From an uncultured Methanobrevibacter sp. (GTDB lineage Archaea; Methanobacteriota; Methanobacteria; Methanobacteriales; Methanobacteriaceae): a stretch of 30,971 bases of DNA. The stretch spans positions 1-30,971 of the forward strand of contig NZ_CACZTX010000014.1 of assembly GCF_902784195.1 (NCBI RefSeq). Direction: 5' to 3'. A program made the translations under genes and the position numbers. Below the pieces are notes generated by a model that saw only the letters and a program-made list of their open reading frames with translations, made no database searches and had not been told where the DNA came from. Below, piece by piece: positions 303 to 28,900 of the stretch. Every line of letters starts with the position of its first letter. Within the stretch, counting starts at the first letter, position 1.

Positions 303-379
303 TTTTTCACTTTTCTTTCAATAAATTTAATATATGACTTATCCATAATTATAATTACTTATTAATTTGAGCTGATATA

Positions 380-1177: not shown

Positions 1178-1222
1178 ACTAGCTATTTTAAGTTCTTATA
1201 CCTAGCCAAATTTTTTCTATTT

Positions 1223-1981
1223 TTACTTATTTTCACTTAAGAAATCCTCTATTACCTTTTTGCTTTTCATCACATTATCGAAATTATTCAATTCAATGAT
1301 TCCATTTTTCACATATTTCAATAAGTTCAAGTCAAGGGTACCGTCACCGATTGCTTGATGCTTATCCTTTATTCCATCATTGTCATTTATATGGTTATAT
1401 AGGATATTAGGAATCTTGAAGAAACTTTCCTGATCTTCGCATGTATTGACATGGCCTAAATCTATTGTAATGTTACAACCTGTCTCATTGGTAAGGTTTT
1501 CCAATTCATAGGCACGGTTTCCAAGATAGGAAAAGCGTTCTGGCATGTTTTCTATGGATATTTTAGCTTCCTTGTCCTCTGCATAAGCCACCAGTTCATG
1601 GGTTGTTTCAGTCAAGAATTCTAGTGCCATATCCCTTAGGTACTTTTCAGGCCTTCCTATTTTACCAGGGTGCGCTGTAATTCCGATAGCACCTATCTCA
1701 TCAGCAAGGTCAAGGCAATCCTTTGTCTGTTTCACAGACTCCTTACGTATTCCCGGATTAAGGCTTGCAAGGTTAATGTCAACATTCACTGCATGCATGT
1801 AGATATCCAAGTCATATGAGTGAAATACTTCAGTGATTTCCTTGTTTCCAAGCATTTCATCAGGTCTATATGGGCCTTCAGCCAATAGTTCAACACTATC
1901 AAAGCCATTTTCTACTGCTATATCAAGCATTTCATTTACATCTTTCATGAAAAGTGAAAGAAGTGAAAATCCTAATTTCAT
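1223..1981 (-). CDS. sugar phosphate isomerase/epimerase, xylose-isomerase-like TIM barrel (AP endonuclease 2 family)
   Basis: 252-aa ORF with spaced metal-ligand style motifs YMHAVNVD, ITAHPG, SIENM, IDLGH and HINDNDG, typical of this TIM-barrel family. GGGGAT SD precedes the ATG. Confidence 0.65.
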   Translation of the reverse strand: MKLGFSLLSLFMKDVNEMLDIAVENGFDSVELLAEGPYRPDEMLGNKEITEVFHSYDLDIYMHAVNVDINLASLNPGIRKESVKQTKDCLDLADEIGAIGITAHPGKIGRPEKYLRDMALEFLTETTHELVAYAEDKEAKISIENMPERFSYLGNRAYELENLTNETGCNITIDLGHVNTCEDQESFFKIPNILYNHINDNDGIKDKHQAIGDGTLDLNLLKYVKNGIIELNNFDNVMKSKKVIEDFLSENK

Positions 1982-2170
1982 TTCAATCCCCGTGTTGTAA
2001 TTTAGTATAAATTATTTTTTATTTAAATTAAAATTAGCTATTAAAAAATTTTTAAAATTTTCATCTTTTTCATTGATAGATAATGGAATCAATTAAGATT
2101 CCAATCATCTACCAATCCTTTGATTTATTGATGTTATGTGGATAATCATAATTTAGATTTAGTAAGTATC

Positions 2171-2815
2171 TTACAAATGATTAAACAATGTCCAAATTTC
2201 AGGATACTTTTCAGCTATTGCAGCATCTATCAAGTCTGATGCTTCACTGCTTATGCTGAATTCAGGTTCGGTTTTTCTCAAGTACCTTAGTACAGCTGCT
2301 GATTTTGCTGACCATAAAGTGATTCTTGGGTTTTTTTCCACAGTTTCGATGACTTCATCTACTAGTTTCTCTTCTTTTTCTGAGAGAAGACTACCAACTT
2401 CTTTTATATCATCAGAAGCTTCAATTATTTCACTACTTGCATCAGTTTCTTCATTTAAATTAACTGTAGAATCAATATTTTCTACACTTTTTTCTGAACT
2501 GATTTTTTCTTCAGTTTTTATCTCATCATCTTCCACTTTTTCATCGTCATTGAAGAAAACATTTGTGTACTCGGATGAGTCTTTAGGTTTTTCATCTTCA
2601 ACATCTGCTGATTTTTCTAAAACTTGAAGTTCATCTTCACCATCAAATTCCTCTTCAACTTCTTCCACCAGTTCTTCAAATGTTTTTGACTCATCTTCGG
2701 ATTCCCTTAATAAATCTTCAAGACTAATGCCCTCTTCGACTTCTGTCTCTTCGATCTTTGGAATCAATGAATCCAATCCTCTTCCTAATCCTGTATTCTT
2801 TTCCTTTTTAGCCAT
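2171..2815 (-). CDS. ParA partner protein: ParB-type N-terminal peptide + long acidic linker + small C-terminal RHH-like domain (SegB/ParB-adaptor-like)
   Basis: 214-aa ORF, 89 bp downstream of and co-oriented with the ParA gene. The N-terminus MAKKEKNTGLGRGLDSLIPK closely resembles the ParA-stimulating N-terminal peptide of bacterial ParB/Spo0J (GLGRGLxALLP). Residues ~25-160 are E/D/S-rich low complexity. The last ~55 aa (NPRITLWSAKSAAVLRYLRKTEPEFSISSEASDLIDAAIAEKYPEIW) have a strand-helix-helix pattern. No ParB HTH or GERRxR box is visible. Confidence 0.5.
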   Translation of the reverse strand: MAKKEKNTGLGRGLDSLIPKIEETEVEEGISLEDLLRESEDESKTFEELVEEVEEEFDGEDELQVLEKSADVEDEKPKDSSEYTNVFFNDDEKVEDDEIKTEEKISSEKSVENIDSTVNLNEETDASSEIIEASDDIKEVGSLLSEKEEKLVDEVIETVEKNPRITLWSAKSAAVLRYLRKTEPEFSISSEASDLIDAAIAEKYPEIWTLFNHL

Positions 2816-2904
2816 TTTACCAAACCCTTTCGTGTTTAAAATTTAAAATTTAATTATAATTCATAATCATCAAAATCATTGTTCTAAATCAATATATCCT
2901 CTCT

Positions 2905-3690
2905 TTATTTTCCATCTCTTTCCAATATTTCCTTAGCAAGTTTCAAGTAAGCTATTGCTCCTTTACTTTCTGGATCATAGACAATACATGGTTTTCCATA
3001 ACTAGGAGCTTCTGCCAAACGTATGTTCCTTGGAATTACTGTATTGAATACATATTCCTTGTCCTTGAAGTATTTTTTTAGTTCGGAATAGACTTCCCTT
3101 CCTAACCGGGTTCTTGCATCATACAGTGTTAGAAGTATTCCCTTGATAGGTGTTGGGCTTCTTAATCTAGTTTCCACAAGCTTGATTGTATTCATTAAAT
3201 CCGCTAATCCTTCAAGTGCAAAGTATTCCGCTTGAATTGGTATCAATACGCTGTCTGCTGCTATCAATGAATTTATTGTAATTATTCCTAGAGATGGTGG
3301 CAGGTCTATAATAATGTAATCAAAAATGCCTTTAATCGGTTCAAGTAAGTTTTTCAATGCTATATGATAGTTAGCTTCCTTGCTTAATTCCACTTCGATA
3401 CCACTTAAGTCGATATTGCTTGGTAGTATGAATAGGTTTTCAATTTTAGTAGGAATTGTTGCTTTTTGAACGCTGCATTCGTTTACTAAAGCAGTGTATA
3501 CTGTCTTCTTGATTTCTGTTTTATTTATCCCAAAACTTGTGGTAGCATTAGCTTGAGGATCCATGTCAACTACAAGCACTGCCTTTCCCATTGCAGCAAG
3601 TGATGTTGCCAAATTAACTACTGTTGTAGTCTTACCACATCCGCCTTTTTGATTCATTACGGCACTTAGAAGTTTTTTCTTAGCACTTAT
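2905..3690 (-). CDS. parA: ParA/Soj-family (SegA-like) partition ATPase
   Basis: Deviant Walker A NQKGGCGKTT, DMDPQ, Walker B IIIDLPP, and C-terminal RLAEAPSYGKPCIVYDPESKGAIAYLKLAKEI as in Soj/ParA. The ORF-track ATG (3657) lies one residue before the P-loop and would delete strand beta1. The frame stays open upstream (ISAKKKLLSAV), so I extend to ATA at 3690-3688, just after a GTGAC SD-like element. The family call is firm; the start is uncertain. Confidence 0.85.
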   Translation of the reverse strand: MSAKKKLLSAVMNQKGGCGKTTTVVNLATSLAAMGKAVLVVDMDPQANATTSFGINKTEIKKTVYTALVNECSVQKATIPTKIENLFILPSNIDLSGIEVELSKEANYHIALKNLLEPIKGIFDYIIIDLPPSLGIITINSLIAADSVLIPIQAEYFALEGLADLMNTIKLVETRLRSPTPIKGILLTLYDARTRLGREVYSELKKYFKDKEYVFNTVIPRNIRLAEAPSYGKPCIVYDPESKGAIAYLKLAKEILERDGK

Positions 3691-3710
3691 TAGTCACAAC
3701 CTCATAGTTA

Positions 3711-3975
3711 TTACTTATATATTATAATTTATAAGTTATACTATATAAGTTTTAAGTTATATCTTATTACTTTTACTTTATAATTTATCATTTATAAGTT
3801 TTTACTTTTAACTTATTTCTTATAATTTTATAAGTTATTAGTTATAACTTATAACTTATAACTAAAAATTATCATAAGAAATAAGAAAAATATAAGAAAA
3901 AATACCTAAAAATAGATGAAAATATTAGAAAAATTCATTAAAAAGAGAGAGAAGTTATCACTTATAAGTGATAAC
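3711..3975. repeat. array of ATAAGTTAT/ATAACTTAT-core repeats with (TTATAAC)x3 and a perfect 22-bp palindrome; candidate centromere/operator upstream of parA
   Basis: TATAAGTT cores occur at 3730-3740, 3745-3752, 3793-3800 and 3829-3838, with TTAAGTTATA at 3752-3761. The inverse ACTTATA occurs at 3713-3719 and AACTTAT at 3810-3816. Three perfect tandem TTATAAC heptamers lie at 3842-3862. GTTATCACTTATAAGTGATAAC at 3954-3975 is its own reverse complement. Confidence 0.5.
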
Positions 3976-4054
3976 AAGAGTTTTTGTTTGTATAAAATCA
4001 GTATTCTATGTAAAAAACAATAAAAAATAAGAAAAAAATAATGGATAAGGAAAT

Positions 4055-5356
4055 CTATTTTGAGTTTTCCATAGATCCATCCATATAACTTGCATAACCT
4101 TTAAAGTCCATTAAACCATGGCCAGAGAAGTTAACAACAATAGTTTTTTCTTCACCAGTTTCCTTACATTTTTTAGCTTCATCAATAGCTGCCTTGATTG
4201 CATGGTTTGTTTCAGGTGCTGGAATGATTCCTTCGCACATTGCAAACATTTTACCTGCTGCAAATACATCTCTTTGGTGAACAGCTACAGGTTTGATGTA
4301 GCCTAAGTCTCTAAGCAAGGACACTTGTGTGTTCATACCGTGGTATCTAAGTCCACCTGCATGTACAGAAGGAGCAACGAAGTTGTGTCCTAATGTAAAC
4401 ATCTTCAAGAGAGGAGTGAATCCAACTTCATCACCAAAGTCGTATCTGTATTCCCCTTGAGTCAAAGTAGGACATGCAGAAGGCTCTACAGCTATGAATT
4501 CAGTATCAGAATTGCCTTGGATCTTGTCTTTAATGAATGGGAACAATGACCCACCAAAGTTACTTCCTCCACCAACACAAGCAATCATAGTGTCTGGCTC
4601 TTCTTCAACTTTTTCAAGTTGCAATTTAATTTCCTGACCGATTGTAGTTTGATGCAAGATAACGTGGTTCAATACACTTCCTAATGTGTATTTTACCTTA
4701 TCATCAGTCAAAGCATCCTCTACAGCTTCAGAAATAGCTATTCCAAGGGAACCTGGAGTGTCTGGATTTTCTGCAAGAACTTTTCTACCCACTTCAGTAT
4801 GTTCACTTGGGGAAGCATGAACCTCTCCGTCATACAATTGCATGATTGTTTTTCTGAAAGGCTTTTGGTCATATGAAACCCTTACCATATAAACGGTACA
4901 ATCGATTCCCATCATGGAAGCTGCAAGGGATAATGCAGTACCCCATTGTCCTGCACCGGTTTCTGTGGTAATTCTTTCAATGCCTTCCTTTTTAGCATAG
5001 TATGCTTGAGCTATTGCACTGTTTAGCTTGTGACTTCCTGTAGGAGATGTATCTTCCCGCTTATAATAGATTTTTGCGGGCGTATTAAGTTTTTCTTCCA
5101 ATCCTCTTGCTCTAACTAAAGGAGTAGGTCTTCCTAATCTTTGGTAGAGTTCCCTTACTTCTTTTGGGATACTGATGTATCTGTCAGTAGCGAACTCTTG
5201 ATTAAGACATTCGTTTACGAATATTTGAGGTAATGTGCTTATTTGATCCTTTCCTTCACTGTTTTTAGGAGCAGGAAGTTCTACAGGTAAATCAGCGTTA
5301 ATATTGTACCATTTGGTTGGTACTTCGTCATTGGATAAATCAATTCTGTATTGCAT
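4055..5356 (-). CDS. trpB: tryptophan synthase beta chain-like protein, TrpB2 type (PLP-dependent), stand-alone
   Basis: 433-aa ORF. It has the PLP-lysine motif TGSHKLNSA, ETGAGQWGTALS, GGGSNFGG and the N-terminal extension typical of TrpB2. GTGATATTATG start context. No other trp genes are adjacent. Confidence 0.85.
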   Translation of the reverse strand: MQYRIDLSNDEVPTKWYNINADLPVELPAPKNSEGKDQISTLPQIFVNECLNQEFATDRYISIPKEVRELYQRLGRPTPLVRARGLEEKLNTPAKIYYKREDTSPTGSHKLNSAIAQAYYAKKEGIERITTETGAGQWGTALSLAASMMGIDCTVYMVRVSYDQKPFRKTIMQLYDGEVHASPSEHTEVGRKVLAENPDTPGSLGIAISEAVEDALTDDKVKYTLGSVLNHVILHQTTIGQEIKLQLEKVEEEPDTMIACVGGGSNFGGSLFPFIKDKIQGNSDTEFIAVEPSACPTLTQGEYRYDFGDEVGFTPLLKMFTLGHNFVAPSVHAGGLRYHGMNTQVSLLRDLGYIKPVAVHQRDVFAAGKMFAMCEGIIPAPETNHAIKAAIDEAKKCKETGEEKTIVVNFSGHGLMDFKGYASYMDGSMENSK

Positions 5357-5634
5357 AATATCACTTTTTGTTTTTTAAATAATCTATTGTAAAAATTTTT
5401 TAAGAATGTCCTTTAATCATTCTGTACTAATATTATGTATAATGTACTATATAAAGCTTTGTAGTACATATTTGTACATTAAAGAACTTAAATATTAATC
5501 TCTTTAAGTTATATTTCTACCATTATTTTTAAGAAAAAACAAATATTTAGGCATTATTTTTCACTTTAATGATTTTTATTCATTTTTTCATCAATTCAAA
5601 AAAATTTAAATATTTACAAAATAAATAAAAAACT

Positions 5635-6693
5635 ATGAAAATTTTAGCTATTGATGTAGGAACCGGTACTGAAGACATTCTATTGTATGACAGTGAAAAA
5701 GAGATTGAAAATTCAATGAAATTGGTCATCCCTTCTCCTCATTTAACCATTGGCCAGATGATATCCGAATGCGAAAGTGACATTTACTTTGACGGCGTCA
5801 TTATGGGTGGGGGAAAGATCAAGGATAGATGTCTTGAACATATGGAAAAAGGATATAAAGTTGCTTTTGAGGATTTGGCAGCAAGAACCATCCGTGACAA
5901 TATAGATCAGGTAAAGTCATATGGGTTTGAAGTTGTTGAAGAAAATGCTTATGAAAAGGATTCTGCCTATTCAAATTATACAAAAATTTCATTAAAAGAT
6001 GTGGATGTAAACCATTTGATTGAGATATTCTCTTCATTTGACCTAGACTTGAAGGTTGATGAGCTTATAGTGGCTGTTCAAGATCATGGATACAGTGAGG
6101 ATATGGGGGATAGGGACTTTAGATTCGAGAAAATCAAGGAAAAGCTTCCAGAACCTAAAGAGCCTGAAACATTTGCAATGGAAGCTGAAAAAGTTCCTGA
6201 ATACTTTACAAGGATGCAATCTGTAATAAAGTCATTAGCTAAAGATAATCCTGAATTTAAGCCGGTTCTCATGGATACAAAATTTGCATCAATCGCTGGT
6301 GTATGCTACGATAAGGAAGTTCTAAAGTTAAACAGCTTTGTTGTTATGGATATAGGAAACGGCCATACTACTGTAGCATCAATTGAAGACGGTAAAATAC
6401 AAGGTGTATTCGAGCACCACACAAGAGATTTAACTTCTCAAAGACTTGAAGAACTCGTTTTAGCCCTTGCTGACGGAACAATTAAGCATGAGGATGTCCA
6501 TGGTGAAGGAGGTCATGGTGCATTTGCATTGAATCCTATTTCAAAATTGGAAAAGGTTATTGTTGCAGGTCCAAAAAGAGCATTGATTGAAGGAACAGAT
6601 CTTGATTATTATCATGCAGCTCCCGGTGGAGATGTTATGATGACTGGAACTGTTGGCCTTGTAAAGTCAATGGAATTCTTAAGAAAAAAATAA
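5635..6693 (+). CDS. ASKHA (actin-like ATPase) fold protein, DUF1786-like
   Basis: 352-aa ORF starting MKILAIDVGTGTEDILLYD (phosphate-1 DxGxGT motif), with a second motif VVMDIGNGHTTV. It resembles the archaeal DUF1786 family; the family name is from memory and not searched. Confidence 0.5.
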   Translation: MKILAIDVGTGTEDILLYDSEKEIENSMKLVIPSPHLTIGQMISECESDIYFDGVIMGGGKIKDRCLEHMEKGYKVAFEDLAARTIRDNIDQVKSYGFEVVEENAYEKDSAYSNYTKISLKDVDVNHLIEIFSSFDLDLKVDELIVAVQDHGYSEDMGDRDFRFEKIKEKLPEPKEPETFAMEAEKVPEYFTRMQSVIKSLAKDNPEFKPVLMDTKFASIAGVCYDKEVLKLNSFVVMDIGNGHTTVASIEDGKIQGVFEHHTRDLTSQRLEELVLALADGTIKHEDVHGEGGHGAFALNPISKLEKVIVAGPKRALIEGTDLDYYHAAPGGDVMMTGTVGLVKSMEFLRKK

Positions 6694-7067
6694 AATTTAT
6701 ATATTTATTATAATCATTATAATATAGTTAGATTCAATTTTACATTTAATAATAATTTAATAAAATCTTATAAAATCAATGTATTTACATACATTTTTCT
6801 TATTTTTCTATTTTTTCTTATCACTTTTATTCTTTATTCAGTAATTTTATTCTAATATTTTCTCATTTCCTAGTAACTTTTTTATTTTTCCTTGCAACTT
6901 TTTTCTAGTATACAGTAAATTTTTTTTCAAGATATTTTTAGTTTTTTGAAATTTTTCACTGATATTTATGGATATATAAAAAAAGTTTATAATGGATTAA
7001 TGCTAATATAACAATTGATAATATTAATCAATAGTAATTTTATTTTATACAATAAACGAGGCATAAT

Positions 7068-7733
7068 ATGAAATTTGATCCGCATATCCATAGTGTTTAT
7101 TCAGGTGATTCCCGTTCAGAAGTTATCGATATTTTGATCCAAGCTGAAAAGAAAGGTTTAGATGCTATTGCAATCAGTGATCATAATGAGATAAAAGGCT
7201 CAAGACTTGCTAGGTCTTATGGCGGAAGCATTATTGTAGTTCCATCAATAGAAATTTCATCCGACAAAGGCCATATTTTAGGATTAGGTGTAGATGAAAT
7301 AATTCCAAAAGGATTGTCTGCTGTAGAAACTGTAGACCGGATCCATGATGCAGGTGGACTAGCTATTGTTCCTCATCCGTTTTCATATTATAGGCATGGT
7401 CTTTTCTGCAAGGTTGACAAGAATCTCAGTGTGGATGGAGTGGAAACAAAAAATGCGAGATACATTTTCGGATACTCCAACAAGCAGGCAGAAACTTTGG
7501 CATACAATAAAAGACTTGCAACTTTAGGTGCCAGTGACTCTCATTTTCTCAAATCTGTAGGAGATGCATTCACTGAAGTCAATACCAAGGGAAATGATTC
7601 TGTAGATGGAATCCTAAAAGCAATTAAGCATAGACGTTGCAAGGCAATGGGTCATAGGACAAGCAATTTCCTGATAGCTAAGGAAGTCTTTGTAAAAAAA
7701 GTCCTTAGAAGATATCCTAAAAGAGAAGAGTAA
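7068..7733 (+). CDS. PHP-domain metal-dependent phosphoesterase
   Basis: 221-aa ORF. Motifs MKFDPHIHSVYSGDS (HxH), AISDHN, EISS..GHILG, VPHPF and GASDSH form the PHP motif series. Confidence 0.8.
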   Translation: MKFDPHIHSVYSGDSRSEVIDILIQAEKKGLDAIAISDHNEIKGSRLARSYGGSIIVVPSIEISSDKGHILGLGVDEIIPKGLSAVETVDRIHDAGGLAIVPHPFSYYRHGLFCKVDKNLSVDGVETKNARYIFGYSNKQAETLAYNKRLATLGASDSHFLKSVGDAFTEVNTKGNDSVDGILKAIKHRRCKAMGHRTSNFLIAKEVFVKKVLRRYPKREE

Positions 7734-7769
7734 TTGAAATCATAATTGATATGGATATGTGATGATAAT

Positions 7770-8627
7770 ATGCCTACTGTAGACACTTTTCTTCCAGATA
7801 TTATACAAACTACTTTTTTCTCTGGATACACTGTTTTCAATACAATAGTCTATACACTAATTTTAGTGATCTTCATATTGGCAATCATTAAAATGTTTAA
7901 GAAGTTGGAGATTGATCCGCTTTCAATTTTCTATTCAATCATTCCATTTATTTTTCTGGGATCTTCAACTCGAGCTTTAGTGGATAATGGAATTCTTCTA
8001 AAAACTGTTTTTCTAATCACCCCTGGACTTTACATTCTTATAGGATTGATAACAATAGTATCATTTTTATTTTCCATTTATCTATTCAATAAAAAAGGAA
8101 TTGATTATAGATATTCATTATTTTCCTTAGGTGTGATCTTTTCATTGCCTAATATAATATTTTTTTCAAATGTAAATTACACTGCACTGATTAATGTCAT
8201 CTTGACATGGATATTGTCATCATTGATATTTATTGGAATCGTGTTTTTAGTTTTATACATTCGAAACAATATTTTCAAAACTGAGGATAAGATCAATCTT
8301 TCAAAGTTCATTGAAAAAATAAAAAAATATAAAATTAATTTTTCCATTGTGCTTGCACATTTGTTCGATGCATCAACAACATATGTTGCTGTAGAATACT
8401 TCAATTATGTGGAACAGCATGTTTTACCAAATGCTATAAATCAGCTATTCGATACATATCTTACATTATTTCCTATGAAAATTATAGTCATAGTTGCAGT
8501 ATTATACATAATCGACCAATATTTCGATGACTTAACAATCAAAAATCTATTAAAATTAACAGTATTTGTATTAGGATTAGCACCAGGATTAAGGAATATT
8601 TTGACATTAATTCTTGGTACTGTATGA
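7770..8627 (+). CDS. polytopic membrane protein, DUF63-like
   Basis: The ORF track gives 7746-8627 from a TTG. I prefer ATG 7770 (MPTVDTF...), preceded by GTGAT. About 8 hydrophobic helices are visible. It lies 13-37 nt after the PHP gene on the same strand. The DUF63 assignment is from memory of archaeal membrane families. Confidence 0.5.
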   Translation: MPTVDTFLPDIIQTTFFSGYTVFNTIVYTLILVIFILAIIKMFKKLEIDPLSIFYSIIPFIFLGSSTRALVDNGILLKTVFLITPGLYILIGLITIVSFLFSIYLFNKKGIDYRYSLFSLGVIFSLPNIIFFSNVNYTALINVILTWILSSLIFIGIVFLVLYIRNNIFKTEDKINLSKFIEKIKKYKINFSIVLAHLFDASTTYVAVEYFNYVEQHVLPNAINQLFDTYLTLFPMKIIVIVAVLYIIDQYFDDLTIKNLLKLTVFVLGLAPGLRNILTLILGTV

Positions 8628-8830
8628 TTGAAATTTTATGAAAATTTAAAAAATTTTTCTTCAAGTTTCGAAAAATATTTTTTTTCAAATTTTATAATAT
8701 ATATTTTTAAAAATAGTAAAAAAGATTAAAAAAATAATAAATGAAAAAAGATGAAAAATAATAAAAAATAAAAAAATGTAAAAGAAGAAAAAATAGTAAA
8801 ATGAAAAATTGTTTAAAAAATAAAAAAAGT

Positions 8831-10366
8831 TTAGATATTTTTCTCAATAGCCAATAATCTATTGATTGAGTTGATGACTGCTACCACACTTGAAATGATA
8901 ACGTCCTCTCTAGTAGCTCTTCCTGTTGCCCTATGGCCATCATTGTCTGAAATCACTACAAAAGTTTCGGCCAATGCATCAGTACCACCGCTTACCGCTT
9001 CAAGTCTGTACTCTTCAAGGTTGATTTCAACAGTTTCATTAACGAGTGATTTGATTGCACCAATAGCCGCATCAACTGGACCCACTCCAATTTGAGAGGT
9101 TTCAATAACCTTTCCTTCGATTGAAAGTCTTACGGTTGCTGTTGCAGATACTGACTCTCCAGTCATTACGCTCATTCCAAGCAATTTGATGTACTCTTTT
9201 CCACTGGTACTCAATTCAGTGATCGCAATGGATTTCAAATCCTCATCTGTAATGCATTTTCCTTTATCCCCAAGTGTCTTTACCTGATTGTAAATGTTTT
9301 CGAATTGCTTAGGACTTACTTCTATATTGAACTCTTCCAATTTGGACTTTATTCCAGCATGGCCGGTATGCTTTCCAAGGGCAATTCTTCTTTTGTGCCC
9401 TACAAGTTCAGGTGGAATCGGTTCATAGGTAGAGCTGTTTTTCAATATTCCATCCACATGGATACCGGATTCATGTGCGAAAGCATTTTCTCCAACAATT
9501 GGTTTTGTAGGAGGCATCTTTATACCTGTAATTGATCCGATGAAATTGGATGTGTCATAAAGTTTGGTTGTGTCTACACCTATGTTTGCACCATAAGCTA
9601 TCTTCAAGCTGACAACAAGTTCCTCTAAAGAGGTGTTTCCAGCTCTCTCACCGATACCGTTTATTGTACAATGGGCCTGGTTTGCCCCTTCTTCAATACC
9701 GATGATTGAATTTGATACAGCAAGTCCAAAGTCATTATGGAAATGAAGACTAATCGGAACATTGATTTTCTTTCTCAAGATTCTTATTAAATCTCTTGTA
9801 GTGGATGGGACTAAAATTCCAACAGTGTCTGGTACATTTATCACATCTGCTCCTGCACCTTCAACGCCTTTGTAGAATTCTATTAGATAGTTAAGTTCTG
9901 TCCTTGTTGCATCTTCAGCTGAAAATTCAACAGTGAGGCCATGATCTTTAGCATATTCAACCGCTTCAATGGATTGATTCAATATTTCCTCTTTTGATTT
10001 TTTCAGCTTATAGTCTCTATGCAGTGGGGAAGTTCCAATAAACAAATGTGCGTATGACAAGTCAGAGTCAATAACTGCATCTATATCCTTTTTCAACACT
10101 CTTGCAAGACCACATAAATTAGACTTGAATCCTAATTCAACCATTCTTTTTGCAGCCTTTCTTTCACCTTCTGATACAGTTGGAAAACCCATTTCAATGG
10201 TGTCCACTCCAAGTTCATCCAGCTTTTGAGCTATCTTTATCTTTTCATCAACTGTTAAAGCGATGCCGGGAGCCTGTTCCCCATCTCTTAAGGTTGTATC
10301 GAAAATTCTGATCTTATCAGGGAGTTTCAATTCTTCCTTTACATCTTCAATGTTTATTGCATTCAT
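8831..10366 (-). CDS. 2-isopropylmalate synthase / (R)-citramalate synthase family (LeuA/CimA)
   Basis: 511-aa ORF. Motifs IFDTTLRDGEQ, LHFHNDFGLAVSN and HESGIH are present, plus a C-terminal LeuA-type regulatory domain. LeuA and CimA cannot be separated by eye. Confidence 0.85.
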   Translation of the reverse strand: MNAINIEDVKEELKLPDKIRIFDTTLRDGEQAPGIALTVDEKIKIAQKLDELGVDTIEMGFPTVSEGERKAAKRMVELGFKSNLCGLARVLKKDIDAVIDSDLSYAHLFIGTSPLHRDYKLKKSKEEILNQSIEAVEYAKDHGLTVEFSAEDATRTELNYLIEFYKGVEGAGADVINVPDTVGILVPSTTRDLIRILRKKINVPISLHFHNDFGLAVSNSIIGIEEGANQAHCTINGIGERAGNTSLEELVVSLKIAYGANIGVDTTKLYDTSNFIGSITGIKMPPTKPIVGENAFAHESGIHVDGILKNSSTYEPIPPELVGHKRRIALGKHTGHAGIKSKLEEFNIEVSPKQFENIYNQVKTLGDKGKCITDEDLKSIAITELSTSGKEYIKLLGMSVMTGESVSATATVRLSIEGKVIETSQIGVGPVDAAIGAIKSLVNETVEINLEEYRLEAVSGGTDALAETFVVISDNDGHRATGRATREDVIISSVVAVINSINRLLAIEKNI

Positions 10367-10476
10367 TTTTCCCTATCCTTTTTGATTTAATAAGTATAAT
10401 CTTAATATAATCTTAATATACTTAATTTTTTATTTTTTAGTATTTATTATTTTTTTATCTATTAATTCAGTGTCTA

Positions 10477-11592
10477 TTAGTAGTTATCCAAAGCTGATTG
10501 ATAATTTCCATCTAGTTTTATATATGGCTCTGCCCTTTTTACCACAACACCTATTCTTTGAAGCTCTTCCAATTTTTTAAATGGCTTGTTTCTTCGGATG
10601 GCCATAATCTTCCTTGCAGATTTTGGGCCTATTCCTGGAACTCTAATCAAATGCTTGTATGATGCATAATTTATTTCTACAGGGAAAATATCCATTTCCC
10701 TTGCGGCTAAAATTTTAGGGTCTTCCCTTAAGGATAATTTGTCGTTCTCATCAAATACAAGTTCTTTCACGTCAAACTTATAATCGTTAATTAATGCATC
10801 TGCATGATACAGTTTAGTGGTTCTATCAGTATTGCATGATTCCTTTTTCTCAAATTCTGTTCCTTCTACAGGTGAAAATGCGCTGAAGTAGCTTCTTCTC
10901 AAGTCCACTTTCTTATATAGGCTCTCCATTCTTTTGAGAATTTCAAGGTCGGTTTCATCATTTGCACCAACAATCAATTGTGTTGTATGGCCGGATTTTG
11001 CAAAACTTGGATTTTTTCTAGCTATTTCATTCATCCAATCAAGTCTTTTCAGGATATCCTTATTGTAATCCTTGGTGCTTGTGATTTCATTAAGGCCGTC
11101 TTTTGTAGCTGCTTCAATATTCAGGCTTACCCTATTAGCCAAGCTCATGGCCCTTTTTATTGAATCCTTTGATGCTCCTGGAATGATTTTTAGATGTATA
11201 TAGTCATCATATCCATAGTCTTTTCTAAGGATTCTTGCAGTCTCTATGGTCTTTTCCATAGTGTTGTCTATAGTATCTCCAATTCCTGAACTTAAAAAAA
11301 GACCATTGACATAACCGTTGTTGTAGTAGTGCAGGAAAGCTCTTGAAAGTTCTTCAGGACTTAATTCAAGACGAGTGAAATTGCGTTTGCTTTGGTTGAT
11401 GCAATATTTGCAGTCGTTTTTGCACTTGTTTGTCATCAATGTTTTAAATAGAGGTATCTTGCATCCATTATGTCCTGTAGCATGGTAAATCCCAGGGAGA
11501 TTGACCTGTGAGCTCTTGCTATGGCTGACATAATCGCAGAGATCATATTGTGCGCTATCTGCCAAAACCTGCATTTTTTCTAATGTGGACAT
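10477..11592 (-). CDS. radical SAM protein with C-terminal helix-hairpin-helix (putative DNA modification/repair radical SAM family)
   Basis: 371-aa ORF. CKNDCKYC matches CxxxCxxC. The C-terminal LIRVPGIGPKSARKIMAIRR is an HhH motif. Size and architecture match the family described as TIGR03916 (from memory). GGTGAATTATG start context. Confidence 0.75.
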   Translation of the reverse strand: MSTLEKMQVLADSAQYDLCDYVSHSKSSQVNLPGIYHATGHNGCKIPLFKTLMTNKCKNDCKYCINQSKRNFTRLELSPEELSRAFLHYYNNGYVNGLFLSSGIGDTIDNTMEKTIETARILRKDYGYDDYIHLKIIPGASKDSIKRAMSLANRVSLNIEAATKDGLNEITSTKDYNKDILKRLDWMNEIARKNPSFAKSGHTTQLIVGANDETDLEILKRMESLYKKVDLRRSYFSAFSPVEGTEFEKKESCNTDRTTKLYHADALINDYKFDVKELVFDENDKLSLREDPKILAAREMDIFPVEINYASYKHLIRVPGIGPKSARKIMAIRRNKPFKKLEELQRIGVVVKRAEPYIKLDGNYQSALDNY

Positions 11593-13387: not shown

Positions 13388-13913
13388 ATTTATTTTTTCT
13401 TTAAATTTTTTTAATTTTTTTTGATTTCTACCGAATTTAATTTTTCAATTCTTTAAACATTTTATCATATTTTTTAATTTTTCTATTTTTTTATCTCCTC
13501 GGACTTTTTTTAAAATTTATTTTTGTATAATGTATACATTTTTTCCATCATTTTTCCATCATTTTTTTACAATATACAAAATTTTTTATTTTTTGAGAAA
13601 ATTTTTCTCATAAAAAAGTATTACTTCAAGAATCTTAAGGATTTTTTCCAAAAAAATTTTTAAAAATCAAAATCTATTTAAATCTATTATTTTATTCTAA
13701 AACTTGAGTTTTTTTAGTTATTTTATTAAAAAACTATAACGATTATTTATTTTTTTAAAATAATTATTTTAAACTATATTTTCTACCACTTTTTTCAGTG
13801 CTGTTTATAACTTTTTGTAGATACAACGTTAACTCAATGATATTACATGCTATATTTTTGTACATTTATGTATATGAAATCCATCTTTTTTTAAGTTTTT
13901 TCAAAAACCAATA

Positions 13914-13927
13914 ATCCTGGCCAGGAT
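13914..13927. repeat. perfect 14-bp GC-rich palindrome ATCCTGGCCAGGAT in an AT-rich spacer
   Basis: Read directly; the sequence is its own reverse complement. It lies between the inverted copies CTCAATGATATTAC (13833-13846) and CTCAAATGATATTAAC (reverse complement of 13953-13968). Confidence 0.6.
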
Positions 13928-14004
13928 CTTCATATTTTTTTAAAAATAATATGTTAATATCATTTGAGATTTTAAGAATTTTTTGAAAAATTTATTTCAA
14001 ATTT

Positions 14005-14030
14005 TGTAACTCAATTTTTACACTTGAAAC
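14005..14030 (+). repeat. composite box TGTAACTCAAT-TTTT-ACACTTGAAAC (ORB-like core ACAnTTGAAA)
   Basis: Read directly. TTTACACTTGAAA (14017-14029) is repeated perfectly in inverted orientation at 15295-15307. The composite order recurs at 15219-15242 on the minus strand. Confidence 0.55.
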
Positions 14031-14136
14031 GATACTAGTTATTTTTTCTCAATTTTTTCAAATTTTTAAATCATCTTAAAAAAGTGATAACTCAAATTAT
14101 CTCAGCTAAATCATCTATGTAATATCATTATGACTC

Positions 14137-14173
14137 CTCAAATTTTTTTTCAATTTTTTTTCAATTTTTTGAG
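14137..14173. repeat. phased oligo-T tracts CTCAAA-T8-CAA-T8-CAA-T6-GAG (11-12 bp period)
   Basis: Read directly. The tracts lie between oppositely oriented GTWAACTCAWT-type boxes (14087-14097 plus orientation, 14169-14177 minus orientation). Confidence 0.6.
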
Positions 14174-14303
14174 TTACAAATTTGATTTTTTTTATAGATT
14201 TTTAAATTAAGTTTATATGCAATGAGTTAACATATATAATAATGTTAATAATTTTTTATATAATTTAATTATTTTATTCATATAAAAAATTTTTAGAATT
14301 TCA

Positions 14304-14316
14304 ATGATAATATCAT
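14304..14316. promoter_or_regulatory. 13-bp palindrome ATGATA-A-TATCAT, 25 bp upstream of the orphan gene start; candidate operator
   Basis: Perfect 6-bp arms with a 1-nt spacer. A second copy, ATGATA-T-TATCAT, lies at 15445-15457. Confidence 0.45.
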
Positions 14317-14340
14317 TTTTTTCATTACGAAGGTATTTTT

Positions 14341-15036
14341 ATGTTAGAAAAGGAAGTCAAACAATATAAGAGAGGAAACAGTTTCACTTACCGTATCGAC
14401 CTATCAAAAAAAGATAATTTTGAAGGTGGAGAGAAGGTAATGATTCTTAGGTTAAGTGAATATGAATCTTATCTGCAGGAGATTGATGATCTCAAGGCTA
14501 AAATTGATGATAATAAAAATACCATTTCAGATTTGAAGCAATCACGCAGTGAAGCGGATTCTTCCATAAATGAAATTATGGAACAAAGGAATCAGGAAAT
14601 TTCAGAAAAGAATAAGGAAATCATGGACCTGGTTGAAGAAAACAAATCTGCCATTGCAAAATGCTATGAAATTATTGATGAAAAAGATCAGCTTATCAAA
14701 CAGGCTAATGAAGAGATTAGGCTTGAAAGGGCAAAGTCTGATTTAGCTCAGCAAAAGGCTGAAGAAAATCTCCTTGAAGAGAGAAAAAGACATGATGAAC
14801 TTGTCTTGGAAAAAGACAAGGAATTGCATAATGTCAACCAGCAGCTTCAAGATAGCCTTAAGGAAATCGCTTATAAGGATCAATTGTTAACTGCAGATAG
14901 ACTTTTAATTGACAGATATAAAAACAGAAGTTTCATTGATCGTTTATTAAACAGGCAACCTGATGACAGTGACTTGCAAATAGAGAGCAAGCCAAAGGAA
15001 ACCTATGTTTTGGAAGCTGAAAAAACAGATGAATAA
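14341..15036 (+). CDS. orphan coiled-coil protein with a short basic N-terminal domain (possibly AbrB/MazE-like swapped hairpin)
   Basis: 231-aa ORF with GAAGGT SD-like sequence upstream. Residues ~45-185 are heptad-like and E/K/Q/L-rich (coiled coil). The N-terminus KQYKRGNSFTYRIDLSKKDNFEGGEKVMIL loosely resembles the AbrB/SpoVT pattern (xGNSxxxxIP...GDxV). It is flanked by 953 and 764 bp of non-coding DNA. Confidence 0.6.
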   Translation: MLEKEVKQYKRGNSFTYRIDLSKKDNFEGGEKVMILRLSEYESYLQEIDDLKAKIDDNKNTISDLKQSRSEADSSINEIMEQRNQEISEKNKEIMDLVEENKSAIAKCYEIIDEKDQLIKQANEEIRLERAKSDLAQQKAEENLLEERKRHDELVLEKDKELHNVNQQLQDSLKEIAYKDQLLTADRLLIDRYKNRSFIDRLLNRQPDDSDLQIESKPKETYVLEAEKTDE

Positions 15037-15218
15037 GTTTTCATCTTCTATTTTTTATTCTATTTTTACATTTTTCTAATATTTTATTCTAATTTCTCTA
15101 TTTTTTCATTCTAATAATTGTAATGTCATTTTATTTTTGAGGATATGCAATTCATATGCATTTTCAATTCATTGAGTTGTATTTTTCGATTAATTTTTAT
15201 TGTAACTCTTAGACATAT

Positions 15219-15242
15219 ATTTCAACTGTATAATGAGTTAAC
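15219..15242 (-). repeat. composite box (minus strand) GTTAACTCAT-TAT-ACAGTTGAAAT
   Basis: The reverse complement of 15219-15242 was read directly. It has the same order and nearly the same spacing as 14005-14030. Confidence 0.55.
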
Positions 15243-15293
15243 CTGTTATTATCATTTTTTGCCAATTTTAGGGCCAGAAATTCCTTGACGTAA

Positions 15294-15307
15294 ATTTCAA
15301 GTGTAAA
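15294..15307 (-). repeat. ORB-like box (minus strand) TTTACACTTGAAAT
   Basis: The reverse complement of ATTTCAAGTGTAAA was read directly. It shares 13 bp of identity with 14017-14029 in inverted orientation. A weaker copy, ATAACATTTGAAAA, lies at 15331-15344 (minus). Confidence 0.55.
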
Positions 15308-15444
15308 TTTTTTTAATATTTTTTTAAGATTTTTCAAATGTTATTATCAAAACATAATCATGTTAATTTATTTTCATTATCATTTCAAATCTTTTGTAAT
15401 ATCATTTATTTTAAGGATTTTTCTCGATTTTTTTCTCTAAAAAA

Positions 15445-15457
15445 ATGATATTATCAT
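15445..15457. repeat. 13-bp palindrome ATGATA-T-TATCAT (second copy)
   Basis: Read directly; it pairs with 14304-14316. Confidence 0.45.
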
Positions 15458-15800
15458 AAAATTTTCTTAAATTTTCTAAAATTTTTCAAGATTTTCATCA
15501 ATTTTTAATGATTTTTTGTATTACTTAAAGATTTTTTATCTATTGGAAAATTTGTTTTATATTTTTCAAATTATTCTTCTTAAAAAATCAGTTTTTCTCA
15601 ATATCATGTAAATTTTTCATCTTCTCAAAATATTTTCCTACATACTTTTTCTCTTTTTCATTGGAAAATTTTTTGCATGTTTTAATATGAAATTCTATGA
15701 TTATTTAAAAAATCCTTAAAACCCTCTTCAAGCCTTTTAAAAAACTTATTATAATAGTTTAAACAAAATCAAAAATAATGCTTTTATAAAAGGGGTTTTT

Positions 15801-25903: not shown

Positions 25904-28900
25904 ATCAATACTAAAATAATTAATTCGATTTTAATTATTTTGATGTTATTCTGTTTAATATCTTTAGTTGGGATCGCTTCGGCGGAAGATATTTCTGATA
26001 ATGAAATAATATCTTATGATGATACAATTGATATATCAACGGAAAATTCCAATCTGCAAGAAATTTCTGATCTGAGTTCTGCTTCAGATTCAAATGATAT
26101 ATCAAACGAGATTTCGAACGCCGATGATTCTGCTGATGATACATCTGATGATGTAATCACCAGTAGTTCATCAAAAGAAGTACTTGGTGCAAACAAACTT
26201 TATGCTAGCTATGATTTATCTGGCTCAACACTCGCGGATATTCAAGCTTATTTGGATTCTGGAAGTGTGGTAGCAGGAGACACCATTTACTTAGGTAATC
26301 AAACATGGAATTCTGGAAATTGGGGCCCTTATAGTGGGGGACCTGTTCAAGTCAATATTCCTAATTTGATTATTAGTGGTGGAACAAGTGGAAGTCCTAA
26401 TGACTTTGCTACTATAAGTGCCGGAAGTAAGATCTTCCAATTAAATGCGCCGGGCATTACTTTGAAAAATATTGCATTTACAAATACTGCACAAGGACCA
26501 TGTTGTGCTGTAAACATTCAGTCATCAGATTCTACCATAACCAATTGTGTTTTCGACCATTGTTATAATCAAAATGGTGCTGCAATTTATGGTTCATCTT
26601 CCTCATCAAATACAAAAATTGAAAATTGTAATTTTACAAACAATGAAGCTATTTGGAGTGGAAAAGGAACTGTTTATTATGAAGGTTCTGATTTAACAAT
26701 TACTGGCAGTATTTTTGATGCTAATATTGGTGGTGCAGTTTACTCTGAAGGAGATACAGAAATAACCGACTGTATATTTGAAGATCATACTACTGATAAA
26801 ATTATAGTTGACCTTCATGGTACTGCAAAAGTAACCAACTCTAATTTCACCAATAACAATGTTACTGGATGGAATGTAGGAGCATTAAATATCGGTGGTG
26901 AAAACAGTTTAATTGAAAACTGTAATTTCATTAATAACAGTGCTCAAGGTTACGGTGGTGCAGTTGGTGTCAATGGTATTAACTCCCAGATAAAGGATAG
27001 TACTTTCACCAATAACCATGCTACTAGTGGTGGAGCAATACATGACTCTGCAAGTGGATTAACTGTAAGCAATTGTGCATTTGAAAACAACACCGCGAAT
27101 AGTGGTGGAGGTGCAATTGATCTTTCTTATGACAATGCTGTTGTAAGTGACTGTAATTTCACCAATAATAGTGCGAACAGTCAAGGTGGAGCTATTTACA
27201 TTGGTTGGGATTGTAATCGCCAAACAATCACTAATTGTGATTTCACTGATAATGATGCAGGTAGTCAGGGTGGAGCTATTTACGCTGACTCAGAAGGAAA
27301 TAAAGTCACTTATTCCAACTTTACTGGAAATAGCGCTCCTAATGGTGGTGCTATCCAATTAGGTGGAGATAGTGATGATTTCGATCTTGAACATGTTATC
27401 TTTGAAAATAACCATGCGTATGTTTATCAAGGTGAATGGGGTCCTGTTGGTGGTCACGGTGGTGCAATCAATGCCGATAACCATAATGAAATCAACCCCG
27501 ATATTGTTGATGTAACTTTCATTAACAACACCGCAGATATTGCAGGTGGTGCAGTAAAACACCATTCCAACTGGACATTTACTGACTGTGAATTCATTAA
27601 TAACTCTGCAAATCCGGATAATAACCCATCTTATGTAAGTGATGAAATATCATTCGGTGGAGGAGCACTTTGGTGTTGTGATGGAATTAGTAATTTAATT
27701 AATACTGATTTCATCGGTAACAATGCAACCTTTGGTGGTGCTATCAGAGGTGCAGTTAATGCAAAAGACTGTCTAGTAGAAAACAATACCGCTTTCAATG
27801 GTAATGGTGGTGGTATTGACATGACTATTGATGCACGTCTTTTTGAAAATGAAACATTCCTTACAGCTGTAAATGTGAAGGACTGTACTTTTATCAATAA
27901 CAGTGCTCAAGGAGATTACCAACCTAGTGAAGAAGCAAAAGGTGGTAAGGCTCAAGGTGGTGCTATTCATGTTTACAGAGTAGATGGTATGGTTCTTGAT
28001 AACATTACCTGTATTGACAACAGTGCTTACAGAGGAGGTGCAATTGACCTCTATGTAATGAACTTCACTACCCTTTCAAATTCAACATTGTTAAACAATA
28101 CCGCTACCCTTGGTGGAGGTATTGCTGTTGTGGGTAACCACACTCGTTTTGACAATGTTACCATGACTGAAAATGCTGCCGTAGTAAACGGTAGTCAAGA
28201 TGGTCAAGGTGGTGGAATATGGGTTATTGGAGAAGACTGCAGAATCTTTAACTCTACTATTGACCACAATATTGCAGAAGGTCAAGGTGGTGGAGCATGG
28301 ATTAACGGATCCGATGTTCAACTAAATAACACTGTCCTAGATTCAAACGTAGCAGAAGCTGAAATGCTAGCTGCGGGTGGTGGATTGTTTGTAGAAGGTG
28401 ATGGTTGTATTTTCAACAACAATACAATCACAAGGAACAATTGTTCCAGTGATTCTGGAACCGGTGGTGGAATATGTGTCACCGGTGAAAATTGTATTTT
28501 TACAAATAATACAATCGACTATAATTTTGCTACTTATGGTGGTGGTGTATCTGTTGATGGTGCAAATACTAATTTCACCCATAACAATATGTCATATAAT
28601 AGAGCAGAAACTGGTGGAGGATTCTTTGTACAAGGTGAGGATTTATATGTTGAAGATTTATATGCCTTCAACAACACTGCTGAAAACGGTGGTGCTGCAG
28701 CAACTCTTTTAGCTGACGGTACCATATTTAAGAATTCCACTTTTGAAAACAACACTGCTATAGGTGACTTATCTGAGGATAGAGGTGAAGGAGGAGCAAT
28801 TCATATTTCTGCTTCTTCAAACGTGCTTGTACAAGCAGATTTCATTAATAACACAGCTTGTAATGGTTCAGCTATTTATGTAGATAATTTCTGGGGACTC

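Follow-up and report, generated by a model that had tools for sequence, protein, structure and literature searches.

In bacteria, the datA, DARS1 and DARS2 loci of E. coli and the DnaA-box clusters of B. subtilis act on the initiator DnaA. Among the Methanobacteriaceae, the cdc6-1-adjoining origin of M. thermautotrophicus was reportedly described by Capaldi and Berger in 2004 and by Majernik and Chong in 2008, the latter being said to have found that a 3′ extension after the core of the origin recognition box (ORB) is needed for stable Cdc6-1 binding. In canonical origins of this family, for example L036, L094, L096 (Methanothermobacter, 12 ORBs) and L129, a short AT-rich gap of about 100 bp has minus-strand boxes to its left and plus-strand boxes to its right, and the published regular expression for Methanobacteriaceae ORBs is TT[TA]CACTTGAAAT[GTA]T[CT][CG]TC (PMC4164010, the Ori-Finder 2 motif). 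Outside origins, multiple Orc1/Cdc6 sites were detected in Sulfolobus by ChIP-seq, with transcriptional roles suggested for them (Samson et al. 2013, PMC3607249), and an Orc1-2 DNA-damage regulon is described in a further report (PMC9738581).

The window, that is, the whole 30,971-nt (31-kb) stretch of DNA that was analysed, comes from an uncultured rumen Methanobrevibacter whose closest named relative is M. thaueri. It holds a gene with ORBs on either side:

14018..14037, plus strand: ORB box 1, TTACACTTGAAAC GATACTA, with 12/13 core positions and a weak 3′ extension
14341..15036, plus strand: gene for a conserved 231-aa protein (78 homologues, alignment, AlphaFold model)
15212..15231, minus strand: ORB box 2, ATACAGTTGAAAT ATATGTC, with the CAG variant in every lineage
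15287..15306, minus strand: ORB box 3, TTACACTTGAAAT TTACGTC, with 13/13 core positions

Because these boxes stand on both sides of a conserved gene and the true origin is about 26 kb away, the locus looks like a satellite site for the replication initiator and not like a second origin. Its boxes share with the ORBs of Methanobacteriaceae origins the 13-nt core that contains the critical G, and boxes 2 and 3 share their 3′ extension as well. Unlike those ORBs, they lie away from orc1, number only three, are spaced by 75 bp instead of about 52 bp, run in the reversed orientation and enclose a gene, not a short AT-rich unwinding element; moreover, the family's origins are without the flanking TAACTCAWT and TGATAWTATCA motifs, both of which are present here. 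The likeness to the Sulfolobus sites consists in an initiator-family protein outside origins (presumed here) with a proposed transcriptional role. However, the Sulfolobus sites were bound experimentally, are not described as conserved structured clusters and belong to a different phylum, whereas the present locus shows structure and conservation, its binding is presumed, and its boxes lie off the predicted core promoter. With datA, DARS and the DnaA-box clusters, the locus has in common a few initiator boxes in a fixed geometry, sites for an accessory protein and a conserved place away from the origin, but the initiators differ (DnaA versus Orc1/Cdc6) and the likeness is one of design only.

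The preliminary description of this DNA had proposed ORB-type elements from a consensus of the ACA-N-TTGAAA type. This consensus was right, as the published family ORB (PMC4164010) matches, and the coordinates and strands of all four boxes named at that time were confirmed. So were the perfect 13-bp inverted repeat (TTTACACTTGAAA at 14017-14029 on the plus strand and 15295-15307 on the minus strand) and two composites, which read TGTAACTCAAT-TTT-TTACAC... (14005-14030, plus) and GTTAACTCATT-ATACAG... (15219-15242, minus). The 13-nt core, including the critical G of TTGAAA, is found in boxes 1-3. The canonical Methanobrevibacter 3′ extension, obtained from 79 ORBs, is (A/G)(T/C)A(T/C)(C/G)TC; it is present in box 2 (ATATGTC) and box 3 (TTACGTC) and also in the orc1-adjoining ORBs of the same species and genus. 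The corresponding sequence of box 1, GATACTA, does not fit in the host species, and other lineages have a partial ..CTT there.

A scoring matrix was built from the 79 canonical Methanobrevibacter ORBs, which themselves score 5-35 bits (median 28.5), and 12 bits was used as the cut. Box 3 reaches 23.5 bits and box 2 reaches 23.2 with 11/13 core positions, its C-to-G position being variable among canonical ORBs too. Box 1, at 14.1 bits, is weak in the host species and is a weaker, core-only ORB copy. Of the four boxes originally claimed, these three are genuine ORBs, but the fourth (15331-15344, core 10/13) did not hold up: it is probably a chance match, because it scores below 12 bits, its critical G is lost in three strains and it has no counterpart in other species.

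The core pattern ACANTTGAAA occurs seven times in the window against 1.23 expected (0/100 shuffles reach 7) and four times in 13388-14340 and 15037-15800, the two intergenic regions, for which local dinucleotide shuffles predict 0.12 (0/5000 reach 4). The matches at 8164, 8886 and 24355 each score below 12 bits and were taken as chance. Since the pattern was picked post hoc, conservation across species is a stronger test than this enrichment. A full-text literature search with the box sequences returned unrelated papers only.

Evidence from other genomes points in the same direction. The oriC of the host species contains TTACACTTGAAATATATGTC and five further ORBs adjoining orc1, and the counterparts of boxes 2 and 3 in M. 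ruminantium and M. olleyae show 20-nt identity to one of these ORBs. When the 20-mer taken from boxes 2 and 3 (TTACASTTGAAATNTATGTC) was searched among 185,579 species genomes, at least 106 blocks of 8 kb were matched; this is a lower bound, as M. ruminantium M1 and M. olleyae YLM1 match exactly yet stand outside the 106. About 96 of the 106 belong to the Methanobacteriaceae, and 41 blocks lie in a canonical orc1 neighbourhood (35 with the orc1-family gene itself), in arrays of up to 15 copies. Judged against the family consensus, boxes 1-3 are true copies of the replication-origin motif of this methanogen family, and boxes 2 and 3, with their extension, are in sequence indistinguishable from the orc1-adjoining ORBs of the same species.

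The arrangement of the boxes is deeply conserved. Boxes 2 and 3 are kept in 8/8 Methanobrevibacter lineages, downstream of the gene and facing it, with exactly 75 bp from the start of one to the start of the other, and box 1 is kept in all seven lineages whose sequence covers the upstream region, where it lies 268-480 bp before the ATG and scores 12-29 bits. Across the eight lineages, mean column identity is 0.91 in box 2 and 0.94 in box 3 compared with 0.58-0.71 in their flanks, and the C/G variant base of each of the two boxes is fixed per position. The boxes are invariant among strains diverging by up to 6%, and the lineages that keep them share only about 50% identity in the encoded protein. 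The long flanking intergenic regions, consisting of very AT-rich DNA (17-19% GC), are conserved as well. The downstream neighbour of the gene varies by species and the boxes travel with the gene, but in M. ruminantium boxes 2 and 3 stand 2.1 kb from the gene because of an insertion sequence (IS). They are intact there, so they may act independently of the gene.

Two further motif families, TAACTCAWT and TGATAWTATCA, are interleaved with the ORBs and do resemble the sites of another protein. Their copies, together with a conserved block, are the following:

13795..13880, no strand: conserved non-coding stretch with TAACTCAATGATATTACATG, which hardly varies in the 5-species alignment
13950..13962, no strand: near-palindrome TATGTTAATATCA, upstream of box 1, with TG..A.TATCA conserved in the 5-species alignment
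14005..14015, plus strand: accessory motif TGTAACTCAAT, 2 nt 5′ of box 1
14303..14316, no strand: palindrome AATGATAATATCAT, between the predicted promoter and the ATG, an exact GATAWTATCA match
15201..15211, plus strand: TGTAACTCTTA, inverted partner of GTTAACTCATT, directly 3′ of box 2 (TAAGAGTTACA on the ORB strand)
15232..15242, minus strand: accessory motif GTTAACTCATT, directly 5′ of box 2, at a fixed position in most of 8 lineages
15243..15255, no strand: TGTTATTATCA, a AATGATAWTAWCA-type near-palindrome whose position between boxes 3 and 2 is fixed
15338..15350, no strand: second near-palindrome copy ATGTTATTATCAA, 5′ of box 3 and overlapping box 4; the motif is conserved, box 4 is not
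15444..15458, no strand: AATGATATTATCATA, a perfect palindrome core and exact GATAWTATCA match

Both families fill the locus, and canonical origins have hardly any copies of them. TAACTC occurs seven times in 13388-15800 and seven times in the remaining 28.6 kb of the window; per kb it is found 4.0 times in the locus as against 0.58 times in canonical origins and 0.22 times in other intergenic DNA, while TGATAWTATCA reaches 2.2 in the locus and 0 in both other classes. As a general companion of satellite ORBs, TAACTC was rejected, being found at 11/104 single or paired sites, mostly as coding coincidences. The register of these motifs is conserved: TAACTCAWT and AATGATAWTAWCA stand in fixed register beside box 2, the AATGATA.TAACA sequence at 15243-15255 is conserved in register in 8 lineages, TAAGAGTTAC is kept with single substitutions in 8 lineages (columns 15201-15211 being invariant in the 5-species alignment), and TG.TATTATCAT at 15444-15458 is invariant in the same alignment. 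The adjacency of TGTAACTCAAT to box 1 is kept in most of 7 lineages, with the variant CAACTAC in M. ruminantium.

The bracketed gene carries promoter-like and terminator-like signals of its own. Its promoter is predicted as follows:

14210..14232, plus strand: predicted promoter of the 231-aa gene, AGTTTATATG (TATA box) followed by CAATGAGTTAACA

The prediction follows the archaeal TATA consensus. CAATGAGTTAACA, placed like an operator, is a minus-strand TAACTCATT motif, so that one TAACTCATT copy falls after the predicted TATA box and before the expected start of transcription; the promoter block AAGTTTATATGCAATGAGTTA(T/A)CATATATA is conserved in 4/5 species. About 180 bp separate the end of box 1 from the predicted TATA box (14212-14219) downstream of it, and boxes 2 and 3 occupy the stretch from 176 to 270 bp after the stop codon.

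The gene had been called an orphan, a description that does not survive the finding of 78 homologues: it is conserved across Methanobrevibacter, and all homologues belong to Methanobrevibacter or the Methanobacteriaceae where the source is named. In the protein, the first 25 residues are invariant, as are 31 of the first 32, and two short strands are predicted in this part; then come one long helix of about 155 residues (38-194) and, conserved at the C-terminus, the motif RSFIDRLLNR. The AlphaFold model likewise shows one long helix, with an N-terminal domain of pLDDT below 50. No Pfam family was assigned to the protein, its sequence matches in the PDB were coiled coils only, and the distant relatives returned by an exhaustive profile search were without a Pfam domain. 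From its near-invariance and strand pattern, one may guess that the N-terminal domain binds DNA, only a guess because the domain is modelled at low confidence.

The true oriC is well placed for comparison. In locus L129, assigned to the host species because its DNA is 97.5% identical to that of a contig overlapping the window, six ORBs at 5941-6240 lie directly upstream of orc1 (6549-7715); a comparison with such orc1-adjoining repeats, proposed in the preliminary description, thus found the same ORB motif in the same species. This oriC is about 26 kb left of box 1 and outside the window, a distance that depends on joining three contigs of different samples (97.5-99% identity); in M. ruminantium it is 99 kb, and in M. 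olleyae likewise about 100 kb or more. The earlier statement that the window lacks orc1/cdc6 is correct, as no Cdc6 domain was found in it or within 10 kb on either side, while an orc1/cdc6 gene lies about 12 kb beyond the left end. An adjacent initiator gene, usual but not obligatory for an oriC, is therefore missing here. The Cdc6 of an abundant Methanobrevibacter (P0184) was rejected as that of the host, since it belongs to another species (79% DNA identity), and the 2.9-kb circular DNA of M. smithii (PMC12134362) is a different locus, msm_0077-0081. A search of a phage database for a viral Methanobrevibacter Orc1 returned haloviruses only, and no tRNA or Rfam family was found in the window. 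GC skew across the 31-kb window follows gene orientation only.

What had been described as the classic archaeal oriC layout is in fact its reverse: plus-strand boxes come before minus-strand boxes, with a 1.2-kb gap holding a conserved gene where inverted ORBs around an AT-rich element would be expected. By its architecture, the locus is not an origin. The best explanation, to which we assign a probability of roughly 0.5, is a conserved non-origin cluster, in which three Orc1/Cdc6 boxes bracket a Methanobrevibacter gene about 26 kb from the orc1-adjoining origin. The attributes of such a cluster, namely at least three boxes, a conserved geometry and adjacent accessory sites, are all found. The initiator (Orc1/Cdc6) would bind box 1 upstream and boxes 2 and 3 downstream, as at oriC, and a locus-specific DNA-binding factor, most likely the gene's own product, would bind the interleaved TAACTCAWT and TGATAWTATCA motifs, which abut boxes 1 and 2 and cover the gene's own predicted promoter. 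Together, initiator and accessory factor would build a nucleoprotein complex around the gene; most likely, expression of the gene would thereby be coupled to initiator occupancy, that is, to the replication or cell-cycle state. Against this explanation, no ORB overlaps the predicted core promoter (BRE, TATA box or start site), as would be looked for in an initiator acting as a transcription factor and which is unusual for archaeal repression; in addition, box 1 is weak here (14 bits), and the M. ruminantium boxes are intact though separated from the gene by the IS.

This separation counts in favour of an initiator-control locus, which would titrate Orc1/Cdc6 or change its nucleotide state with the help of an accessory factor while the neighbouring gene is not regulated. 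Three boxes of fixed spacing with tightly juxtaposed accessory motifs match the DARS/datA design, the locus is origin-proximal both here (26 kb) and in M. ruminantium (99 kb), and further strong ORBs occur singly at scattered places near oriC, for instance a 31-bit site at window position -2224. Such a locus nevertheless appears unlikely: three sites titrate little protein, we know of no archaeal example of the datA/DARS kind, and the accessory motif recurs in the predicted promoter of the gene, so the module seems tied to the gene. Equally tentative is an origin-proximal nucleoprotein centre providing datA/DARS-like feedback on initiation or a centromere-like organisation or segregation of the origin, where Orc1/Cdc6 would sit on the three ORBs and a coiled-coil DNA-binding protein on its own iteron-like motifs; to our knowledge, neither initiator-control nor origin-organising, centromere-like elements have been described for Orc1-type initiators.

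The preliminary description had also considered an origin uncoupled from its initiator gene, a secondary or dormant origin, or an array of another protein. A secondary or dormant origin using the orc1 26 kb away in trans is very improbable, even though the ORBs are genuine and inverted, the DNA is very AT-rich, the conserved flanking intergenic regions are unusually long, and dormant origins are said to exist in haloarchaea. The polarity is opposite to that of every canonical Methanobacteriaceae origin inspected, the boxes stand 1.2 kb apart (3.3 kb in M. ruminantium) around a conserved gene, and there are three of them against six in the same-species oriC and up to 15 in other genomes. Their 75-bp spacing departs from the canonical 52 bp or so, a fully equipped oriC is only 26 kb away, and real origins have next to none of the locus-specific motifs; neither origin reading is supported. 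The least probable reading is that the boxes are bound by another protein and merely resemble ORBs, or do so by chance. The match to the published consensus and the extension of boxes 2 and 3 make a look-alike array unlikely for the ORBs themselves, as the form of these two boxes is that of a canonical 20-nt ORB, their counterparts in M. ruminantium and M. olleyae share all 20 nt with a host oriC ORB, and the TTACASTTGAAATNTATGTC 20-mer is almost confined to the Methanobacteriaceae. In favour of this reading, the two further motif families are clearly those of another factor; conservation in 8 lineages and the local shuffles exclude chance.

For origin-prediction tools, the locus is a warning against taking every ORB cluster in a long, AT-rich intergenic region for an origin. 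Control of the archaeal Orc1/Cdc6 initiators beyond the origin is little understood, and the non-origin sites of Sulfolobus have been reported but not dissected. The present locus offers a compact (about 2.4 kb), deeply conserved test case with testable parts, namely three initiator boxes, two accessory motifs and one candidate partner protein, in a genus that matters for gut and rumen biology.

The four ORB-like boxes of the preliminary description were confirmed exactly where it had placed them, TTTACACTTGAAA forms a perfect 13-bp inverted repeat, and both longer composites read as it described. In the window, ACANTTGAAA occurs seven times, as compared with 1.23 expected copies. The two long intergenic regions flanking the gene at 14341-15036 hold four copies where local dinucleotide shuffles predict 0.12, and none of 5000 shuffles reached this number.

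14017 (+), box 1
14341-15036 (+), gene encoding a 231-aa protein
15219 (-), box 2
15294 (-), box 3
15331 (-), box 4

The ORB consensus given in the preliminary description agrees with the Methanobacteriaceae motif of Ori-Finder 2, TT[TA]CACTTGAAAT[GTA]T[CT][CG]TC (PMC4164010), whose 13-nt core is matched at 13/13 positions by box 3, 12/13 by box 1, 11/13 by box 2 and 10/13 by box 4. The 20-mer TTACASTTGAAATNTATGTC, derived from boxes 2 and 3, was used to scan one genome per species in 185,579 species. At least 106 blocks of 8 kb were matched, all from Methanobacteriaceae except for about ten stray bacterial ones; these counts are lower bounds, because the known positives M. ruminantium and M. 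olleyae were overlooked. At least 41 of the 106 blocks represent the canonical orc1 neighbourhood, at least 35 of them with the orc1-family gene itself. The main Orc1 paralogue there is 41-45% identical to the Orc1 query, and its gene is usually a few hundred bp away from ORB arrays, in which up to 15 copies repeat about every 52 bp. A matrix of 79 canonical Methanobrevibacter ORBs takes the form TTACACTTGAAAT (A/G)(T/C)A(T/C)(C/G)TC. Scored with this matrix, box 2 reaches 23.2 bits, box 3 23.5 bits and box 1 14.1 bits, compared with a median of 28.5 bits (range 5-35) for canonical ORBs, while box 4 and the three remaining ACANTTGAAA sites of the window stay below 12 bits. Judged from these matches, it is unlikely that the boxes are look-alike sites of another protein. 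An exact 20-mer, TTACAGTTGAAATTTATGTC, is also repeated within giant adhesin-like ORFs (blocks L019, L028, L067, L079, L088, L103 and L107); this repetition is apparently coincidental, arising from coding repeats, and yields false ORB matches.

The window organism, which is not M. smithii, is an uncultured rumen Methanobrevibacter, with M. thaueri as its closest named relative. As had been noted, the window lacks an orc1/cdc6 gene; no Cdc6 domain was found there or in the 10 kb to its left and right. The initiator gene and its repeats were instead located by chaining contigs from the window through L011 (98-99% identical to window 1-11095) to L129 (97.5% identical to L011 across 8.8 kb), in which six ORBs adjoin orc1. 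The gene order in L129 is as follows, with window coordinates obtained by chaining:

DUF2299 gene
5941-6240 (window about -12,690 to -12,391), six oriC ORBs of 22-34 bits
6549-7715 (window -12,082 to -10,916), orc1
pyrB
hisG
histone gene

By these chained coordinates, box 1 lies about 26.4 kb from oriC, a distance that depends on contigs from separate samples. In M. ruminantium M1, the homologue mru_2149 starts near 2,837,833 in a genome of 2,937,203 bp that is numbered from the start codon of cdc6-1, with oriC immediately 5' of it (PMC2812497), placing the gene about 99 kb from oriC. The distance also varies by strain, since the gene content in between differs among strains of the window species, both left of the window (L012 versus L011) and right of an amidase gene (L129-L131); examples are glycosyltransferases and a permease versus riboflavin genes, and a PadR/ABC transporter insert. 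Strongly variable between strains as well is the ORF at 25940-30556 (+), with a TTG start and 1538 aa, which probably encodes an adhesin-like surface protein; Cna_B/CLIPPER/Beta_helix domains are present in the homologous regions of L013 and L014.

The locus had been likened to the classic archaeal oriC layout, a comparison that does not hold. All inspected canonical Methanobacteriaceae origins, including that of the window species (L129) and a Methanothermobacter origin with 12 boxes (L096), have a short AT-rich gap with minus boxes to its left and plus boxes to its right, whereas the locus has the reverse polarity. Its gap is 1.2 kb and holds a gene that appears to have a TATA box and terminator-like oligo-T tracts. 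Its boxes number three, as opposed to six in the oriC of the window species and up to 15 in other genomes, and are spaced at 75 bp rather than about 52 bp. GC skew across the window tracks gene strand only. A secondary origin is thus unlikely, given the reversed polarity, the gene-bearing gap, the few boxes and a complete oriC only 26 kb away.

The gene, previously regarded as an orphan, has 78 homologues, whose source, where named, is always Methanobrevibacter or Methanobacteriaceae. In 7/7 loci spanning both flanks, cfbB is followed by a long intergenic region, the gene and a second long intergenic region. Box 1 lies on the strand of the gene, 268-480 bp 5' of its ATG, in all seven lineages with the upstream region; boxes 2 and 3 lie downstream on the opposite strand in 8/8 lineages, their starts exactly 75 bp apart in each. 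The variant base is constant in the lineages examined, with CAG in every box 2 and CAC in every box 1 and box 3. This arrangement persists although protein identity between the remotest lineages is only about 50%. In an ungapped stack, column identity reaches 0.94 for ORB 3 and 0.91 for ORB 2, compared with 0.58-0.71 in the flanks. Boxes 1-3 do not vary among strains that diverge by up to 6%, whereas the G of box 4 is lost in three of these. The neighbouring gene 3' of boxes 2 and 3 is not the same across species. In M. ruminantium M1 (L015), an insertion sequence with a DDE_Tnp_1 transposase (7003-8511) separates the gene from boxes 2 and 3, both intact; further downstream, a unit of about 50 bp (GGTGTTTCATGTTTTTTGGGGCATTGTGATTTTTTCT...) is repeated in tandem. 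A conserved non-coding block at window 13795-13880, which contains TAACTCAATGATATTACATG and then CATT.ATGTATAT, hardly varies among five species and has no Rfam match; it could serve as a promoter, encode a small RNA or form a protein-binding platform.

Two accessory motifs, at fixed positions, crowd both intergenic regions around the gene. TAACTC(AWT) reaches 4.0/kb at the locus, versus 0.58/kb in 13 canonical Methanobrevibacter origins and 0.22/kb in the window's remaining intergenic DNA. TGATAWTATCA reaches 2.2/kb and is absent from both comparison sets. Since TAACTC shows no association with satellite ORBs (those outside oriC) elsewhere, it is a feature of the locus.

2 nt 5' of box 1, TGTAACTCAAT
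just past the gene's predicted TATA box, TAACTCATT
directly 5' of box 2, GTTAACTCATT
3 nt 3' of box 2, GAGTTAC, an inverted copy of GTTAACTCATT
between boxes 3 and 2 at a constant distance, AATGATAWTAWCA

The obvious candidate for binding these motifs is the 231-aa protein itself. Within its first 32 residues, 31 are invariant, including all of the first 25 (MLEKEVKQYKRGNSFTYRIDLSKKD); two short predicted N-terminal strands are followed by a single helix (38-194) and a conserved RSFIDRLLNR motif. The family is small (39 cluster representatives), and no Pfam or PDB family match was found.

Other ORBs also occur outside oriC. A single very strong one, TTACACTTGAAATGCACCTC (31.3 bits; L011 7398, L129 16407, window about -2224), lies about 2.2 kb to the left of the window, in the 92 bp that separate an amidase gene from a CobQ-like GATase_3/CbiA gene, and close variants occupy this junction in at least six more Methanobrevibacter genomes (L027, L037, L095, L110, L121, L124). 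A second class of arrays, with 3-7 boxes in one orientation and a period of about 53 bp, lies between aminotransferase and YtfJ-like genes in Methanobrevibacter (L023, L025, L033, L044, L048, L063, L064, L116). These arrays adjoin neither initiator gene; where the block reaches far enough, a second, divergent Orc1 paralogue, probably cdc6-2 and 27-28% identical to the query, is found about 3-5 kb away. An ORB-like sequence of 20-29 bits is conserved within the CbiG coding region about 2-3 kb from oriC (L129 3798, L034 3393, L036 4234, L086 7819 and others); it may be a mere conserved peptide (ITLEL in L036) or dual-use. About 50 of the 106 blocks carry single ORBs of 20-34 bits, which occupy shared intergenic junctions in related genomes of Methanobacterium, Methanosphaera (L049/L070/L087/L098/L120) and Methanobrevibacter, for instance L020/L042, L039/L073 and L041/L047. 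Because of this recurrence, scattered non-origin ORBs seem to be a general feature of Methanobacteriaceae. Additionally, two genes about 15 kb from oriC could form a partition-like pair, which in L018 is two genes away from the one for the 231-aa protein:

2905-3657 (-), ParA/MinD-type ATPase gene (AAA_31, ParA, MipZ)
2171-2815 (-), 214-aa gene following it on the same strand, no Pfam match

Taken as a pattern of sequence, the locus is best read as a non-origin Orc1/Cdc6-binding module tied to the gene at 14341-15036. A close rival, drawn by analogy, is that the module would act back on the initiator, as its design resembles datA, DARS and the B. subtilis DnaA-box clusters, all of which act on DnaA. 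To our knowledge, an ORB cluster that is conserved and structured and has its own accessory motifs has not been described. For the preferred non-origin binding module, Orc1 sites outside origins have a precedent in Sulfolobus ChIP-seq (PMC3607249). We infer that the initiator would occupy the three ORBs and a locus-specific factor the interleaved accessory motifs; together they would bracket the gene and its predicted promoter, and gene expression would likely be coupled to initiator occupancy.
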